A stretch of DNA of 62,760 bases, taken from positions 1 through 62,760 of the forward strand of contig JAPLHV010000034.1 in NCBI GenBank assembly GCA_026389455.1, given 5' to 3'. The position numbers and the translations under genes are program-made. Shown here piece by piece: positions 17,053 through 23,492 of this stretch; the first letter of the stretch is position 1; the number at the start of each line of letters is the position of its first letter. The notes beneath the pieces were generated by a model. It ran no database searches, was not told the origin of the DNA, and worked only from the letters and a program-made list of their open reading frames with translations. This stretch comes from Coprothermobacterota bacterium (GTDB lineage Bacteria > Caldisericota > JANLFM01).

Positions 17053-17490
17053 GATTCCTCCTTGAGTTGTGCCCTGGTTCGCTTAACGATCGCTATCAGT
17101 TGCGTGCAGAGCGAAGATTGTCAACCGCAAACCGGGGTTGGGCAGTGTTTCGCCATTGCCTTTCTTGGCTGCGATCCCTTTCCGCACCATGGAATTCTTC
17201 TCCCATCATCGCTGCTGATCAGTGTAACAAAAACTGACTGTGCGAGACTACCCGTCGATCCCTGCACGTGACCTAAGTCTGGTTTAGGCAACAATGGCTA
17301 GAATCGGTTCTATCTCAATTTCCGCCTAGGTTTTGCTACCTTTCGCGAGTATCTTGGTGAAGCCTGGCGTCTCAATAGGTGGTACGCTATCGAAAGAGAT
17401 TCCGTGAAAAGCGAATGGTCCGGGTGCTTGAGCGCCTCCGGCGCCCTGCGTCTTTCACGGGATCGGAAGACTTCAATTGGAGGTGATCTG

Positions 17491-19723
17491 ATGAACTGGA
17501 ATAGAAGAAGTGTTATCTCTCTGCTGTTGTTGACCGTCCTCCTTCTCACGCTGTGCGGGTTGCCCTCGCCTGTTTCGGCGGACGGCGCTCTCCGCCTCTC
17601 CCTGGAGACCCAAGACTTCATTCGCTCCCTCGAGGAGAGGATCCTGCAGGCGGGCGAGATGGTCCCGGACCCGATTACCCTCTCCCACGCCAGGGGCCAG
17701 GCCGTCTTCCCTGCAGCCATCTACCCGGCCAGTTACGATCTGCGCACGCAGGGAAAGCTGACCCTGGTGAAAAACCAGAATCCCTACGGAACTTGCTGGG
17801 CCTTCGCCTCATTGGCTTCTTTGGAATCAGGCTTGATGCCCGGTCAAGCGTGGGATTTCTCGGAGAACCATTTGGCCCGCTGGAGCGGTTTCGACAACGC
17901 GCCGCAGGGAGCCTACAACCACGGTGGCAACGCCACCATGAGCACCGCCTACCTGGCTCGCTGGCAGGGACCGGTCAACGAGGCGGACAGCCCCTACCCC
18001 GACCCCTCCACCCCCTCGGCGCTGCCGGTGCAGAAACACGTCCAGGAGGTTCTTTTCCTCCCGCCCCGGGCCACCAAGCTGAACAATGACAACATCAAGG
18101 GCGCCCTGACGACTTACGGCGCCGTGACCGCCTCGCTATACTGGAACGATCTCTACTTCAGCGCCGCCGCCAACTCCTACTACTACGCCGGGTCAACTGC
18201 CACCAATCACGGGGTGGCCATCGTCGGGTGGGATGACAACTACGACAAGAGCCTCTTCACCGGCGCCAGTGGATCCCCTTCCAGCAACGGCGCCTTCATC
18301 GTGCGCAACAACTGGGGAAGCGGCTGGGGAGAAGGCGGCTACTTCTACCTCTCCTACTACGACAGCAAGCTGGATCTCTTCCGCGTCTTCAACAACGCTG
18401 AGGCGACTACAAACTATGGCCGCGCCTACCAGTACGATCCTCTCGGCTGGATCGGCGAGGTCGGTTGCGGCACCAACACGGCTTGGTTTGCCAACGTTTT
18501 CACCGCACAGGCCGGCGAGAGCCTCGCCGCAGTGAGCTTCTACACCACCGATGTCAATGCCGCCTATGAGGTCTACCTGAAGACCAACTTCAACGGCGCC
18601 TCCTTCGTCGGTCCGCTCCCCAGGCTACCATACCGTCAGCTTCGCCTCCCCGATCCCGGTGACCGCGGGCAGCAAGTTCTGCGTAGCGGTGAAGATGACC
18701 ACGCCCAACGATACCAACCCAATCGCTATCGAGTGCGCGGTGGCCGGCTACTCCAGCGGCGCTTCCTCCGGACCGGGCCAAAGCTACACTAGCTCGTCTG
18801 GCGCCGTTTGGACCGATATCACCACCGATCCTGATCCTCTCTTTCAGACCGCCAATGTTTGCCTGAAAGCCTTCACAACTTCCGTCGCGCCCGTCCCCAC
18901 GATTGGCTGGAGCCCCTCTTCCTTCACCTTCCAGGCAACCCAGGGAGGCCTCAATCCCTTGTCGAAGACCCTCTCCATCTGGAACGCAGGGACCGGGATC
19001 TTGAACTGGAATGCCGCTCTTAGCGCCACTTGGCTCTCCCTGAGTCCCACTACAGGCGCCTCGACCGGAGAGACCGACATCATCAGCGCTTTCGTCGATA
19101 TTGCCGGCCTAACAACAGGAACCTACTCCGCCACCATCACCCTCAGCGCCGCCGGTGCATCCAACTCGCCTCAGCAGGCGCCGGTGACACTGGTAGTCAG
19201 CCCCTCCGGCCCAGGGGTAAATCTAAACTACGATCTGGTGGCCGGCTGGAATATGATCAGCATCCCGCTGGCCCTCGCCAATCCCAACCCGGACGCTCTG
19301 CTCCCGCTCGGGTGGCCGCTCTATGCCTGGGATGCGGTCCAGGGGATCTATCTAGGCCGAGATCAAATCCTCCTTTCCCTAGGCGACGGATATTGGTTGA
19401 AAGTGCCGACTGCGCAACCTCTGGTTCTCTACGGCCCAGCCAATGAGCAAACCTCTACGGCCATACACCTGGAAATTGGGTGGAACATGATCGGCACTCC
19501 CTACCACCAGCCAGTAAGTTGGGGTTCAGTCACAGTGACCAAGGGGGCGGAGAGCAAGAACCTGGATCTGGCCATCACCGCCGGCTGGATCCAAAGCGCC
19601 TTCTACCGCTGGACTGGAACCACTTATCAATTGGTCGGCAGCGGGGGGACCTTTCAACCGACCTCCGGCTGTTGGGTGAAAACACTCCAAGCAGGCTGTT
19701 CTTTCACCTTCCCCAAGCCTTGA
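17491..19723 (+). pseudogene. Secreted papain-like (C1A) cysteine protease with lectin-like and BACON-like/C-terminal beta domains, frameshifted near 18600-18620
   Basis: Signal peptide after a GGAGG SD; QNPYGTCWAF, NHGVAIVGW, RNNWG. The homologous sequence continues as PGYHTV...KMTTP in the +1 frame (ORF 18659-19723). Confidence 0.8.
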
Positions 19724-19788: not shown

Positions 19789-20442
19789 ATGAACAATGCG
19801 GCCTGGCAGGATTTTGAAGTGGCCCTGCTGGCGATGGATCGGATTCGCGCACGCGCTCTTTTGCGGACGGAGCGCCTAGAGGAAGCAGTAGTATCTTCCC
19901 TGGAGTCACTGGTAATTCCTTCCCTGGAGCAGATTGGAATTCGTTGGGAGGCCGGGGAAATTTCCCTGGCCCAAGTCTATATGGCCGGACGGATCGCGGA
20001 GGAGTTGGTTGATGAGTTCCTCCCCCCGATGAGCCCACAGCGCACCGACCAACCCAAGATAGCCATCGCTGTGTTGGAGGATTGCCATGCTCTGGGAAAA
20101 CGCATCGTGATCTCCGCTCTGCGAGCAAGTGGATACGAATTGACCGATTTCGGGCATGGTTTGACGGCCGTCGATCTGGCGCGCCGTGTCAAGCGGGAGG
20201 GAGTGCAGATTCTCTTGATTTCGGTACTGATGCTGCATTCAGCCTTGCGCGTGGCCGAACTTCGTAAACTGCTGGGCGACTCCGGCGACTGTGCTGGCTG
20301 GCTCCCGCCCCGATTGATTGTCGGCGGGGCGCCCTTTCTTTTTGACAGCCGGCTCTGGCGCGATGTGGGGGCTGACGCCATGGGACGAAATGCGGCAGAA
20401 GCGGTTTCTCTGGTCAAAGAGGCTGTGGAGGAGCAGAAATGA
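19789..20442 (+). CDS. Corrinoid (B12-binding) protein with cap domain
   Basis: Helical cap, DxHxxG (DCHALG), SVLM, VGGAPF. Confidence 0.9.
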   Translation: MNNAAWQDFEVALLAMDRIRARALLRTERLEEAVVSSLESLVIPSLEQIGIRWEAGEISLAQVYMAGRIAEELVDEFLPPMSPQRTDQPKIAIAVLEDCHALGKRIVISALRASGYELTDFGHGLTAVDLARRVKREGVQILLISVLMLHSALRVAELRKLLGDSGDCAGWLPPRLIVGGAPFLFDSRLWRDVGADAMGRNAAEAVSLVKEAVEEQK

Positions 20443-21494
20443 GCAGCGCAATGACACCTTTACAGCGTGTCTTGACCGCTCTCGGCCACCAGGAAGCGGA
20501 CCGTGTGCCCTTTTTCCTGTTCCTCAGTCTGCATGGCGCAAGAGAACTGGGGATGCCCTTGCGTCAGTATTTCTCACGGGGAGAGAACGTGGCAGAAGCG
20601 CAGTTGCGCATGCAAAACCGTTACGGACACGATTGTCTGGACGGATTTTTCTATGCTCCGGCCGAGATCGAGGCCTGGGGAGGGGAAGTGGTTTGGTTCG
20701 AGGACGGGCCACCCAACTCGGCGACCCCCTTCCTCTCTGACGTAAGAGCTATCGCCGGCTTGAAACCTCCGCGCGTGGAAGAGACGCCCGTCCTGGTCGA
20801 AGCGCTGAAAGCCATCTCCTTGATGAAAGAACAGTCGTCTCTTATCCCAATCCTTGGGGTAGCGATTTCGCCCTTCTCCCTGCCGGTCATGCAAATGGGC
20901 TTCGAGGCTTACCTGCAGTTGATCCTTGAGCAGCCCGAGGCATTCTGGCAGTTGATGCGCGTCAACGAGGAGTGGTGCGTGTCTTGGGCAAACGCCCAGC
21001 TCTCCGCCGGCGCCACGGCCATCGCCTATTTCGACCCGGTCTCATCGCCGACTGTGATCCCGCCGGATCTGTACCGAAAAACCGGCTTCCTGGTCGCCTG
21101 CCGCACCCTGCCGCGGATCCTCGGACCCACCGTTACTCATCTGGCCTCGGGACGGGCCCTTCCCATCCTGGATGACCTGGCCGCAACAGGGACGGCTGGA
21201 GTGGGGGTAAGCGCGCTGGAGGATCTGGCCGAATTGAAACGGGTTGCTTCCGGAAAACTGGCTCTCCTGGGGAACTTGAACGGGATCCAGATGCGCCACT
21301 GGACGGCGGCTGACGCTGAGCGCGAGGTGAAGCAAGCCATCGCCAAGGCGGGGAAGGGGGGCGGCTTCATCCTGGCGGACAACCACGGGGAGATCCCTTG
21401 GCAGGTTAGCGAGGGAACGCTCTCCGCCATCGCCGATACCGTTCGACGATGGGGTCATTACCCCCTGGATTGGATCGATGAGTCCCTCACCTAA
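20439..21494 (+). CDS. Uroporphyrinogen decarboxylase/MtaA-CmuA fold protein
   Basis: ERV...DRVP-type N-terminus, AEIEAWG, YFDPVSS, LLGNLNG, GGGFIL. Confidence 0.85.
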   Translation: MSSAMTPLQRVLTALGHQEADRVPFFLFLSLHGARELGMPLRQYFSRGENVAEAQLRMQNRYGHDCLDGFFYAPAEIEAWGGEVVWFEDGPPNSATPFLSDVRAIAGLKPPRVEETPVLVEALKAISLMKEQSSLIPILGVAISPFSLPVMQMGFEAYLQLILEQPEAFWQLMRVNEEWCVSWANAQLSAGATAIAYFDPVSSPTVIPPDLYRKTGFLVACRTLPRILGPTVTHLASGRALPILDDLAATGTAGVGVSALEDLAELKRVASGKLALLGNLNGIQMRHWTAADAEREVKQAIAKAGKGGGFILADNHGEIPWQVSEGTLSAIADTVRRWGHYPLDWIDESLT

Positions 21495-23451
21495 GCTCTG
21501 CCTGGTCTTCTGCCGTAATCTAGCTCCGGAGGTGAAGGCTGTCCTGGCCGATGGCGCCTTCCCCGACGTAGAGATGGCCACCTTCCCGGCCCGCTGCACT
21601 GGACGCATGAGGAAAGAAGCGCTGGAGCTGTTCTTCAAAGAGCTATCCACACGCTATGACCGGTTGGAGATATTCGGTGGACCTTGTCTGACCATACAAG
21701 AACAGACTTGTCGCCAGATCGGGAATTGCGCCTTGCACATCTTTCAGCCATGCTGCCATCCGCTCTTGGAGCAAAACCACTTGGAAGAGTTTCTTCGAGA
21801 AGGGGCTTACCTGCTGACTCCCGGATGGATTCTGCACTGGCGCGAATACCTGGAGGAGTGGGGCTTCGACCAGGCTACAGCACGATCCTTCTTCGGCGAA
21901 TTCTGCCGTACGCTCCTGCTTCTGGATACCAACGTCTGGCCGCAAGCAGCAGAACAGCTCCAACAACTGGGCGAATATCTGGACTTGCCTACCAAACGAG
22001 TGTCCTTGGGTTTGGATTTCTTTCGTCTTTTCATCTCCCGGATCGTGCTAGAATGGCGCATGGAAAAAGAAAATCGCAGCTCAAAGGATTCGCTGAGCCA
22101 AGACCCCTCCGGCGACCCCGGGCGGCAATCGGCGGAGTACGGGATGGCCTTGGATCTGTTGGGCCGGCTAACCAAGACCGTAGACGAGGAAAGCGTTATC
22201 GAGGGGATCTTGGAGCTCTTCACCCTGCTCTTCGCTCCGGCTCGATTGACCTATCTCCCCATCCAGGAGGGAAAAGCGGGAACGGCGATCAGTCGCCCAC
22301 CTGTCGAGGAGTCGGAGTTCCCCACTTTGATGGCCTTCCATCGTTCCGGAGAAGAATACGCCTGGAACGAGGAGAGGGACGGCTTCCACTTGAGGATGGG
22401 GGAGGCGGGGACAATCGGCGTTCTGGAAGCAGCCCGTTTTGCTTTCCCCCAAATGGGTGATCGCTATCTGAACCTTGCGCTGCTAGTAGCCCGCGTCTCC
22501 AGCCTGGCCATCGCCAACGCCCGCGCCTTCCGCCGGCTGGAGGAAGCCAAGGAGAGCCTCAGTCGCACCACCGCCCAATTGGAGGGAATCTTCCAGGCGA
22601 TGCCGGATCTCTTCTTCCTGCTGGAAGCGGATGGAACCATTCGCGATTGGAAGGCAGGATCCCAGACGGAGCTGGGGAAGCCGGAGGCGTTCCTCCCCGC
22701 GGAAAGCCTTCTGGGGAACAAGCTGCAGCATCTCCTCCCGCTCCAATTTCGAGCAGCCTGCTTGAACTCTCTCCAGCAGGCCTCCACCAGGGAAGAAGTG
22801 ACAGCCTTCGAGTTTTCCCTCTTGCAGGCTCAGGACGAGCGTTCTTTTGAGGCTCGCATGGCGCCAATGGCAGGAGGCTTGGTGATCTGCTGCATCGTCC
22901 GCGATATCACGGAACGGAAGCGGATGGAAGAGAAGATCTTGACCCTCTCCATCACCGACGAGTTGACGGGGCTGCTCAACCGTCGCGGTTTCCTGACCAT
23001 GGCTACCCAGCAACTGAAGATCGCCAAACGGACGAAAAACCGTCTCTGGTTGATCTTCGCCGACTTGGACGAGTTGAAGTGGATCAATGACCACTTGGGG
23101 CATGAAGCGGGTGACCGGGCGATCCAGCAGATCAGCATCCTCCTGAAAGAGACTTACCGGGAAGCGGATATCTTCGCCCGCATCGGAGGGGATGAGTTCG
23201 TCGTGCTGGCCACCGAGATCTCGCCGGCAAGTGCGGCTAACCTGGTCAGCCGTTTTGCAGGGAGCGTGCGCCAATGGAACAAGCAAAGTGAGGAACCCTT
23301 CACCCTCGACCTCAGCTTGGGGGTTTCCCTCTTCAACCCCGCTTTTCCGGTGAGCCTGGATGAGCTGATGCGCCAAGCCGACGATGGCATGTACCAGCAA
23401 AAACGCCTCAAGAAAGCGGTAAAAGAACGCTTGGAAAAAACAGAAGGGTAG
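21478..23451 (+). CDS. Diguanylate cyclase: DUF1638-like N-terminus, GAF-like, PAS and GGDEF domains
   Basis: YLLTPGW...WGFD...LLLLDT segment; DELTGLLNRRG, DLDELKWIND, GHEAGD, RxxD I-site (READ), GGDEF. Confidence 0.88.
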   Translation: MSPSPKLCLVFCRNLAPEVKAVLADGAFPDVEMATFPARCTGRMRKEALELFFKELSTRYDRLEIFGGPCLTIQEQTCRQIGNCALHIFQPCCHPLLEQNHLEEFLREGAYLLTPGWILHWREYLEEWGFDQATARSFFGEFCRTLLLLDTNVWPQAAEQLQQLGEYLDLPTKRVSLGLDFFRLFISRIVLEWRMEKENRSSKDSLSQDPSGDPGRQSAEYGMALDLLGRLTKTVDEESVIEGILELFTLLFAPARLTYLPIQEGKAGTAISRPPVEESEFPTLMAFHRSGEEYAWNEERDGFHLRMGEAGTIGVLEAARFAFPQMGDRYLNLALLVARVSSLAIANARAFRRLEEAKESLSRTTAQLEGIFQAMPDLFFLLEADGTIRDWKAGSQTELGKPEAFLPAESLLGNKLQHLLPLQFRAACLNSLQQASTREEVTAFEFSLLQAQDERSFEARMAPMAGGLVICCIVRDITERKRMEEKILTLSITDELTGLLNRRGFLTMATQQLKIAKRTKNRLWLIFADLDELKWINDHLGHEAGDRAIQQISILLKETYREADIFARIGGDEFVVLATEISPASAANLVSRFAGSVRQWNKQSEEPFTLDLSLGVSLFNPAFPVSLDELMRQADDGMYQQKRLKKAVKERLEKTEG

Positions 23452-23492
23452 GGGTTTGGGGACAGATTTTAAATCTGTCCCCAAACCCCTAC
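23448..23492. repeat. 45-bp perfect palindrome (GTAG termini enclosing the GGGGACAGATTT core)
   Basis: gtaggggtttggggacagattt-t-aaatctgtccccaaacccctac; contains the DGC stop codon. Confidence 0.92.

Follow-up and report, generated by a model that had tools for sequence, protein, structure and literature searches.

Three overlapping genes encode a corrinoid protein, a URO-D-like protein and a signalling protein

We analysed a 62,760-nucleotide stretch of DNA (contig JAPLHV010000034.1 of GenBank assembly GCA_026389455.1; hereafter the window) from the metagenome-assembled genome (MAG) of a Coprothermobacterota bacterium, which spans 2.63 Mb and is 89% complete. On the forward strand of the window, three genes with overlapping start and stop codons encode a corrinoid protein, a protein of the uroporphyrinogen decarboxylase (URO-D)/MtaA fold and a multidomain signalling protein. 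The second of these, here called the URO-D-like protein, had been singled out in an earlier note, written from the sequence alone, as a relative of MtaA without the cysteines of the zinc site. The three genes are as follows.

19789-20442, forward strand: corrinoid (B12-binding) protein of 217 amino acids, with a helical cap and a Rossmann B12 domain (Pfam PF02607 and PF02310)
20439-21494, forward strand: URO-D/MtaA-fold protein without zinc-thiolate ligands, 351 amino acids (PF01208, 1.4e-47; AlphaFold2 (AF2); Foldseek)
21478-23451, forward strand: signalling protein of 657 amino acids, with DUF1638 (about residues 1-200), a GAF-fold domain (about 205-360), PAS (372-482) and GGDEF (492-645) (Pfam, AF2 and Foldseek)

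The start of the URO-D-like gene overlaps the stop codon of the corrinoid gene (ATGA), and the start of the signalling gene overlaps the URO-D-like gene by 17 nt. The AF2 model of the URO-D-like protein (predicted local distance difference test (pLDDT) 89.5; predicted template modelling (TM) score 0.90) is a (beta/alpha)8 barrel of the URO-D type, which Foldseek aligns to chain A of MtaA (4AY7) with TM scores of 0.82/0.85. This MtaA, from Methanosarcina mazei, is also the best solved relative in a phmmer search of the PDB, and the structural neighbours found by Foldseek include the UroD-like fold of the acetophenone carboxylase subunit ApcE. At the level of individual families, the protein falls far below the cut-off of every model compared: 104.2 against 235.4 bits for MtaA/CmuA (TIGR01463), 75 against 400 for MtaA_Meth, 49.4 against 600 for MtbA and 38.8 against 302.95 for hemE (TIGR01464).

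The gene at 20439-21494 is the only PF01208 match in the host genome. No second PF01208 gene, and hence no canonical hemE, was found in the 89%-complete MAG; haem, if the host makes it, would need an alternative route, or hemE sits in the missing part of the genome.

The zinc-site positions and the conserved catalytic face

Five segments of the URO-D-like protein bear on its active site.

21132-21152, forward strand: VTHLASG, residues 232-238; H234 aligned with the zinc-binding His of MtaA, A236 with its first zinc-binding Cys, and S237 a one-residue insertion (alignments)
21204-21224, forward strand: GVSALED; S258 at the acidic position, which is E in MtaA and D in the HxC clade; E261 always E or D (alignments, census)
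21366-21398, forward strand: FILADNHGEIP, residues 310-320; H316 (or G317) at the distal zinc-Cys position, H316 matching the 'GHG' His of UroD (alignments)
20625-20654, forward strand: GHDCLDGFFY; C66 where a barrel strand begins, Y72 aligned with the catalytic Asp of UroD (alignment to UroD 6w2o, AF2 secondary structure, census)
20868-20903, forward strand: SPFSLPVMQMGF, a loop of invariant columns that follows a barrel strand and is modelled with lower confidence; candidate for a lid or for docking the corrinoid

Two kinds of alignment were used to place the zinc ligands. The phmmer search of the PDB pairs 'vlHiC-Gn' of MtaA 4AY7 with 'vtHlaSGr' and 'laPGCGiap' with 'laDNHGeip', and a profile-profile alignment of 30 homologues with the HxC...C clade (probability 100) sets H234 on the His and A236 on the Cys. 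The distal Cys lies opposite H316 by phmmer and on G317 by the profile-profile alignment, an offset of one residue between the two, and phmmer pairs H316 with the 'GHG' His of several UroD structures. The observation in the earlier note that VTHLASG stands where His-X-Cys is expected, and FILADNHGEIP where the distal Cys is expected, is borne out by both methods. MT2-A is reported to share the His, Cys, Glu and Cys ligands of MetE (PMC539065). Provided that this Glu corresponds to the intervening acidic position, replacement affects three of the four ligand positions of the MtaA/MT2-A type.

Searched exhaustively with HMMER, 1.8 billion representatives yielded 1836 relatives. Conservation was gauged in three sets: 30 close homologues of 60-68% identity (KSB1, Thermodesulfobacteriota, Thermoleophilia, Chloroflexota and others), the 120 closest clusters at 90% identity, and a census of the wider family in 31 representative clusters at 50% identity, all of which keep H316-G317. 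In the close homologues, H234, A236, S237, D314, H316, G317, E318, I319 and P320 are invariant. Both motifs that the earlier note had picked out persist across the closest clusters, HxAS in 120/120 and [DE][NHQ]HGEIP in 115/120, and HxC...GC occurs in none of the 120. Judged from these alignments, the replacement of the zinc ligands is a family trait and not decay, chance or a sequencing error. In the census, A236 is kept in 30/31 clusters, S237 in 24/31, S258 in 26/31, E or D at 261 in 31/31, D or E at 314 in 31/31, H316-G317 in 31/31, E318 in 30/31 and Y72 in 22/31, such that D314, H316, G317 and E318 form the most strongly conserved signature of the wider family. In the AF2 model, A236, S237, S258, E/D261, D/E314, E318 and Y72 follow closely on barrel strands, on the face that in MtaA holds zinc and contacts the corrinoid; Y72, S237, S258, E/D261, D/E314, H316 and E318 make this face strongly conserved in polar residues. 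The invariant loop SPFSLPVMQMGF lies in a region (residues 141-160) with pLDDT of 67-72 and is a candidate for a lid or for a corrinoid-docking element.

Could other cysteines fill the zinc site? The protein has only three, C66, C180 and C221. C221 varies even within the close homologues, C66 is kept in 11/31 and C180 in 16/31 of the census clusters, with A, V, I, S or T elsewhere, and the AF2 secondary structure places C66 at a strand start and C180 and C221 within helices, off the catalytic face. On conservation and predicted topology, these cysteines were rejected as substitute ligands; the earlier note had named other cysteines in the zinc site as a finding that would overturn its view. 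Its conclusion that the protein is not a conventional zinc-thiolate thiol methyltransferase is supported by the family-wide replacement of three of four ligand positions and by the 104 versus 235 bits for the MtaA/CmuA model.

The loss of the cysteines is common in this part of the superfamily. Only about 4 of 82 full-length representatives in the top 150 carry HxC...C, and the remainder form several cysteine-free clades; a quick tree with weak support places the HxC zinc clade in the opposite half from the query family. Zinc-independent corrinoid methyltransferases of the UroD superfamily, CdmB and MtvB, have been documented: the 1.57-Å structure of CdmB is without zinc, CdmB is unaffected by EDTA (ethylenediaminetetraacetic acid) or zinc, and a Moorella O-demethylase is likewise without zinc (PMC13222342). 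The earlier note treated the missing cysteines as an anomaly, which overstated the case. By comparison with its relatives, their absence alone is ordinary for this branch and not surprising.

The three genes form a widespread cassette

The gene neighbourhood was surveyed in a genome collection with one genome per species. Scanning it with peptide patterns that include DNHGEIP identified at least 586 relatives of the URO-D-like protein, and the best 80 of their loci were compared. By tblastn, nearly all 80 loci have the order B12-binding protein, URO-D-like protein, DUF1638, GAF. They span at least eight phyla (Desulfobacterota, Chloroflexota, Verrucomicrobiota, Nitrospirota, Gammaproteobacteria, Bacteroidota, Bacillota and Actinomycetota), and the carriers include cable bacteria, Thiomargarita, magnetotactic Nitrospirota, Geobacter relatives, Syntrophales and Anaerolineae. 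All-against-all clustering of the open reading frames (ORFs) in the 80 loci yielded only three recurring gene families: the corrinoid protein, of the His-on type, the URO-D-like protein and the DUF1638-GAF protein. Candidates for a fourth conserved gene were rejected, as no methyltransferase 1 or 2 (MT1/MT2), RamA-type activase, transporter or fixed response regulator recurs in this clustering. The genes of the window belong to the same cassette by gene order and by the signature A236, S258, D/E314 and H316-G-E318. The cassette appears not to have been described before.

The conserved part of the third gene is joined to interchangeable outputs. In the 44 loci from which outputs were tallied, HATPase_c was found 24 times (with HisKA in 21) and GGDEF 8 times; PAS, REC and EAL domains also occur. 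In several of the histidine kinases, the GAF helix continues directly into the H-box of the phospho-acceptor domain. The cassette is also kept in clades of 36-46% identity without H234. Fusions provide a second line of evidence. URO-D-DUF1638 fusions occur in three separate 50% clusters, and one 90% cluster of them has 6 members on 13 contigs. The fusions at L102:1119-2759, L103:5001-6623 and P0191 are 540-555 amino acids long, each is preceded by a B12-binding protein, and genes for an HK-REC hybrid kinase and a REC protein come after one of them. That DUF1638 is fused to the URO-D domain in some genomes and to the transmitter in others argues that the three components act as one complex. A URO-D-histidine kinase fusion (P0123) was set aside as a singleton on one 4.7-kb contig and a possible frameshift artefact; the URO-D-DUF1638 fusions have firmer support.

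Other arrangements were observed alongside the common one. A clade of 31% identity with the signature 'HHTGG...SGGDIP' (L100:139-6614) has a B12 protein, a URO-D-like protein, a free-standing DUF1638 protein and a 331-amino-acid protein, with a divergent PocR-PAS-HK-REC gene alongside, a layout reminiscent of the mec cassette. At L041:6523-8513 and L061:6001-9028, two copies of the cassette, or a duplicated URO-D-like gene, lie side by side.

The host genome also contains, on a contig other than that of the cassette, a conventional catabolic corrinoid cluster (C126:26500-37500), which shows the layout of a metabolic corrinoid system in the same organism. Its genes encode an MttB-family methyltransferase, an ornithine cyclodeaminase, a 342-amino-acid corrinoid protein, an MtmB-like protein, an aldehyde dehydrogenase and RamA/RACo; no URO-D-type or pterin-type MT2 was found in this stretch.

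The corrinoid and signalling proteins of the window

Further features of the two flanking genes are listed below.

20080-20097, forward strand: DxHxxG lower-ligand motif (DCHALG) of the corrinoid protein
23158-23169, forward strand: RxxD I-site (READ), residues 561-564 of the signalling protein
23185-23199, forward strand: GGDEF active-site motif, residues 570-574 (PF00990, 7e-36)
23448-23492, no strand assigned: perfect palindrome with a 20-bp stem (GTAGGGGTTTGGGGACAGATTT...), overlapping the stop codon of the cyclase gene; copy of a repeat family of this genome

The corrinoid gene has a GGAG ribosome-binding site ahead of its ATG. Its product has MtbC and pyl_corrinoid as best NCBIfam matches, both far under the cut-off, and its D-x-H-x-x-G-K, S-x-L and GG motifs are conserved in 64 cassette homologues. 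No B12 riboswitch was found in the 65-nt gap upstream of the cassette; at E <= 0.1, Rfam returned only a spurious microRNA match on the palindrome. Further upstream, at 17404-19723, two long forward-strand ORFs (462 and 354 amino acids) overlap by 134 nt in different frames; they may be two genes or a single secreted protein interrupted by a frameshift.

The signalling gene is the only DUF1638 gene in the host genome. The AF2 model of residues 1-365 (pLDDT 90.4) shows DUF1638 as a two-lobed alpha/beta domain, followed by a middle domain that has no Pfam assignment, is assigned a GAF fold by Foldseek and ends in a long signalling helix. The C-terminal domain has both features of a GGDEF diguanylate cyclase, the GGDEF motif and the RxxD I-site. 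Within DUF1638 (21478-21780, residues 1-100), two cysteines, C12 and C92, are invariant across 31 cassette homologues, and a third, C40, is almost so; a free-standing DUF1638 protein keeps the first and last of these cysteines, with GDCC in between. From this pattern, the cysteines could form a metal or Fe-S site. DUF1638 is needed, together with a RamA-like protein, for the split B12-dependent methionine synthase of Phaeobacter (PMC5764234), a view repeated subsequently (PMC12478193), and no signalling fusion of DUF1638 is described in the literature found to mention it. The palindrome likely marks the end of the three-gene unit and is a putative terminator.

A B12-based sensor is the preferred interpretation

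The context fits a suggestion in the earlier note, that the protein may act as a sensor: its gene belongs to a conserved cassette, the third member of which encodes a signalling protein that joins DUF1638-GAF to interchangeable outputs. We give somewhat better than even weight to the URO-D-like protein being the part of a cytoplasmic B12-based sensor that docks on the corrinoid protein and, by a thiolate-independent mechanism, transfers a methyl group or sets the state of the cofactor. In such a mechanism, the barrel face would dock on the upper face of the cobalamin in the partner protein, as MtaA does with MtaC. The barrel would then catalyse or gate the transfer of a methyl (or other alkyl) group to or from cobalt without a thiolate, as zinc-free methyltransferases I (MTIs) of the UroD superfamily do, and thereby set the cofactor as Co(I)/Co(II) or CH3-Co(III). 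Finally, DUF1638-GAF would read the cofactor state, or a complex stabilized by it, and pass it to the PAS-GGDEF cyclase here and mostly to histidine kinases elsewhere. The quantity sensed may be a methyl donor or acceptor, or redox state or oxygen by way of the cobalt state. The fuller proposal, that the cassette is a new class of signal input, a cobalamin-state chemosensor, is more tentative. In it, an alkyl mark on the corrinoid protein would be written or erased by the URO-D-like protein, with a methyl donor or acceptor from the cell or its environment or depending on redox or oxygen; DUF1638-GAF would read the mark and so drive histidine kinases or cyclic di-GMP enzymes.

Several points weigh against a sensor of this kind. 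About one-fifth of the cassettes examined pass straight from the URO-D-like protein to GAF, without DUF1638; a free-standing DUF1638 is usually encoded elsewhere in such genomes, and DUF1638 is missing altogether from one draft genome with a cassette of this type. In one relative (P0126), the B12-binding and URO-D-like pair stands without an adjacent sensor. RamA homologues are present in 11 of the 14 cassette genomes checked, and a RamA-type activase is absent from the other three, including a complete Smithellaceae chromosome; these gaps count because an activase is expected if Co(I) chemistry turns over, and RamA as an obligatory partner is unsupported. The analogy to the MTIs is loose, since the pocket is polar and acidic and the cavity of CdmB is aromatic and metal-free. 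The histidine at 234 is kept in 17/31 census clusters and missing in 14/31, some of which are still linked to the cassette. Motif conservation across the 80 loci arises partly by construction, as the scan patterns included DNHGEIP, and the census of representatives is the unbiased set for motif counts. Moreover, docking, catalysis, the direction of transfer, the substrate, the signal, any metal and complex formation are all matters that we infer.

A less probable reading is that the barrel is a non-catalytic reader or cap. It would only bind the cobalamin from above, with H316 (or H234 or H315) perhaps serving as an axial cobalt ligand, and report whether the upper position is free or alkylated. 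AerR and photolysed CarH hold B12 by upper-axial His ligation, and a UroD-like fold is found in ApcE. The loss of three of four zinc-site positions, the lack of a recurring second methyltransferase and the absence of RamA from some carriers are all consistent with a protein that performs no transfer. Moreover, position 316 is always His, and a second His is present at 234 or 315 in 25/31 clusters. When there is a His around position 234, residue 315 is Asn in 13/18 clusters; when there is none, residue 315 is His or Gln in 10/13. This pattern hints that a second His is wanted at one of the two positions, although a quick tree, itself of weak resolution, suggests no more than about three independent switches. 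However, identity of about 60% across phyla and about 30 invariant polar residues, concentrated on the catalytic face, are more typical of an enzyme.

We regard as improbable that the protein is an ordinary catabolic corrinoid methyltransferase (MTI or MTII) whose operon merely includes its own regulator. A cognate corrinoid protein does adjoin it, MTIs of the UroD superfamily without zinc are known (PMC13222342), and the mec cassette likewise pairs a histidine kinase with a corrinoid protein and a UroD-family MTI (PMC9768040); the host genome encodes RamA and MttB/MtmB-type proteins elsewhere. However, a second methyltransferase, an activase and a transporter never recur in the 80 loci. The supposed regulator has DUF1638 and GAF as its only conserved input, and its GAF helix often runs into the phospho-acceptor domain; in other clades, DUF1638 is fused to the URO-D domain itself. 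Moreover, the variety of outputs (kinase, cyclase, EAL) is what would be expected of a portable sensor module and not of a pathway-specific transcriptional regulator.

The earlier note had also proposed a different metal site, with a His/Asp/Asn/His set. In the form of a metal-dependent alkyl transferase with a His/His/carboxylate site (H234, H316 and D314 or E318), this is quite unlikely. Positions 234 and 316 correspond to two of three MtaA ligand positions and should be adjacent by homology, which makes such a site conceivable from the alignment; the carboxylates are kept (D/E314 in 31/31 and E318 in 30/31 clusters), and loss of H234 tends to accompany the change of N315 to H or Q. However, the proposed set is no fixed feature, as H234 is absent from 14/31 clusters, cassette-linked ones among them, and the zinc alkyl-transfer sites of MetH, MetE and MT2-A have at least two thiolate ligands (PMC539065). 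The H234/N315 covariation was downgraded as proof of a metal site, given the few independent events and the weak resolution of the tree.

A light sensor, in which the corrinoid protein is a B12 photoreceptor and the URO-D-like protein re-alkylates its cofactor after photolysis, is very unlikely. Such a role is suggested by the cap and B12-domain architecture, by a weak match to CarH (2.3e-9) and by W53 at the position of the CarH tryptophan. Against it, the corrinoid protein lacks the Wx9EH motif of CarH: V63-Y64 occupy the E-H positions, and the same holds across its family (consensus 'We.G..aLsQvYM'). Many carriers, moreover, are MAGs labelled Syntrophales, Smithella, groundwater Chloroflexi and other anaerobe lineages, which live in dark habitats.

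Finally, true uroporphyrinogen decarboxylase (HemE) identity, for which the single PF01208 match in an 89%-complete genome and the pairing of H316 with the UroD GHG His could be cited, is rejected on the hemE score (38.8 against a cut-off of 303 bits) and the missing catalytic Asp (Y72 in its place), with the RQAGR arginine motif not found in the sequence and the link to a B12 protein and a sensor invariable.

Relation to known corrinoid systems

The URO-D-like protein shares with the MT2 enzymes MtaA, MtbA and MtsA (4AY7) the TIM-barrel fold, an adjacent cognate corrinoid protein, the His at the first ligand position and the DPxxSP and GN motifs after strands. It differs in having Ala for the first Cys, Ser for the acidic residue and His (or Gly) for the distal Cys; it scores under every MtaA/MtbA cut-off, is bacterial with no methanogenic context, and has a signalling-protein partner in place of MT1. 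From UroD/HemE, with which it shares the fold and the His of the C-terminal GHG motif (H316), it differs in Tyr72 for the catalytic Asp, the lack of the N-terminal arginine motif, the low hemE score and the B12-protein partner.

Like the zinc-independent MTIs of the UroD superfamily (CdmB, MtvB, OdmB/VdmB, MtoB and MecC/MecE), with which it was compared by description only, the URO-D-like protein is a UroD-fold partner of a corrinoid protein, and like CdmB and MtvB it has no zinc-thiolate requirement (PMC13222342). The MTIs, in contrast, have a catabolic role and are clustered with an MTII, often together with an activase, and the aromatic, hydrophobic cavity of CdmB contrasts with a polar, acidic pocket containing the invariant DNHGE. 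In the mec cassette, as here, a kinase adjoins the corrinoid protein and the MTI (PMC9768040). The type 1 mlp clusters resemble the cassette in that MtaA/MtbA homologues, widespread in bacteria, accompany a corrinoid protein without a tetrahydrofolate methyltransferase; they differ in having two or three Mlps and a Ram/RACE activase, in being linked to methyl-sulfur or methyl-selenide metabolism and in being found mostly in Firmicutes (PMC10418091), and they have no DUF1638-GAF signalling gene. Neither the mlp clusters nor the mec cassette is the same system, as their composition differs.

The split methionine synthase of Phaeobacter inhibens and Ruegeria pomeroyi likewise has a small corrinoid protein beside a DUF1638 protein (PMC5764234, PMC12478193). 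There, DUF1638 is free-standing and occurs with homocysteine- and pterin-binding methyltransferase pieces and RamA, whereas in the cassette it is fused to GAF and outputs and the URO-D-like protein is the only methyltransferase-like protein. With CarH and AerR, the cassette has in common a cap and a Rossmann-held cobalamin as the signal-perceiving cofactor of a regulator. These photoreceptors differ in sensing light through adenosylcobalamin, in acting on DNA or an anti-repressor, and in having neither an enzyme-like partner nor DUF1638.

Implications

The loss of the zinc-site cysteines is already known in kind, and it is the gene context that makes the URO-D-like protein interesting. The remodelled site (H234, A236, S258 and H316, with the invariant DNHGE) could show how an MtaA barrel works without a zinc thiolate. 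If the proposed role is correct, it would also offer a first clue to the function of DUF1638, a domain that corrinoid-dependent methionine synthesis requires on genetic evidence. A B12-dependent methyltransferase-like pair would then be the input device for two-component and cyclic di-GMP signalling in many anaerobes and gradient organisms. It would be the first B12-dependent sensor other than a photoreceptor or a riboswitch, and would add a new sensing role to the known uses of cobalamin in catalysis, riboswitches and photoreception.

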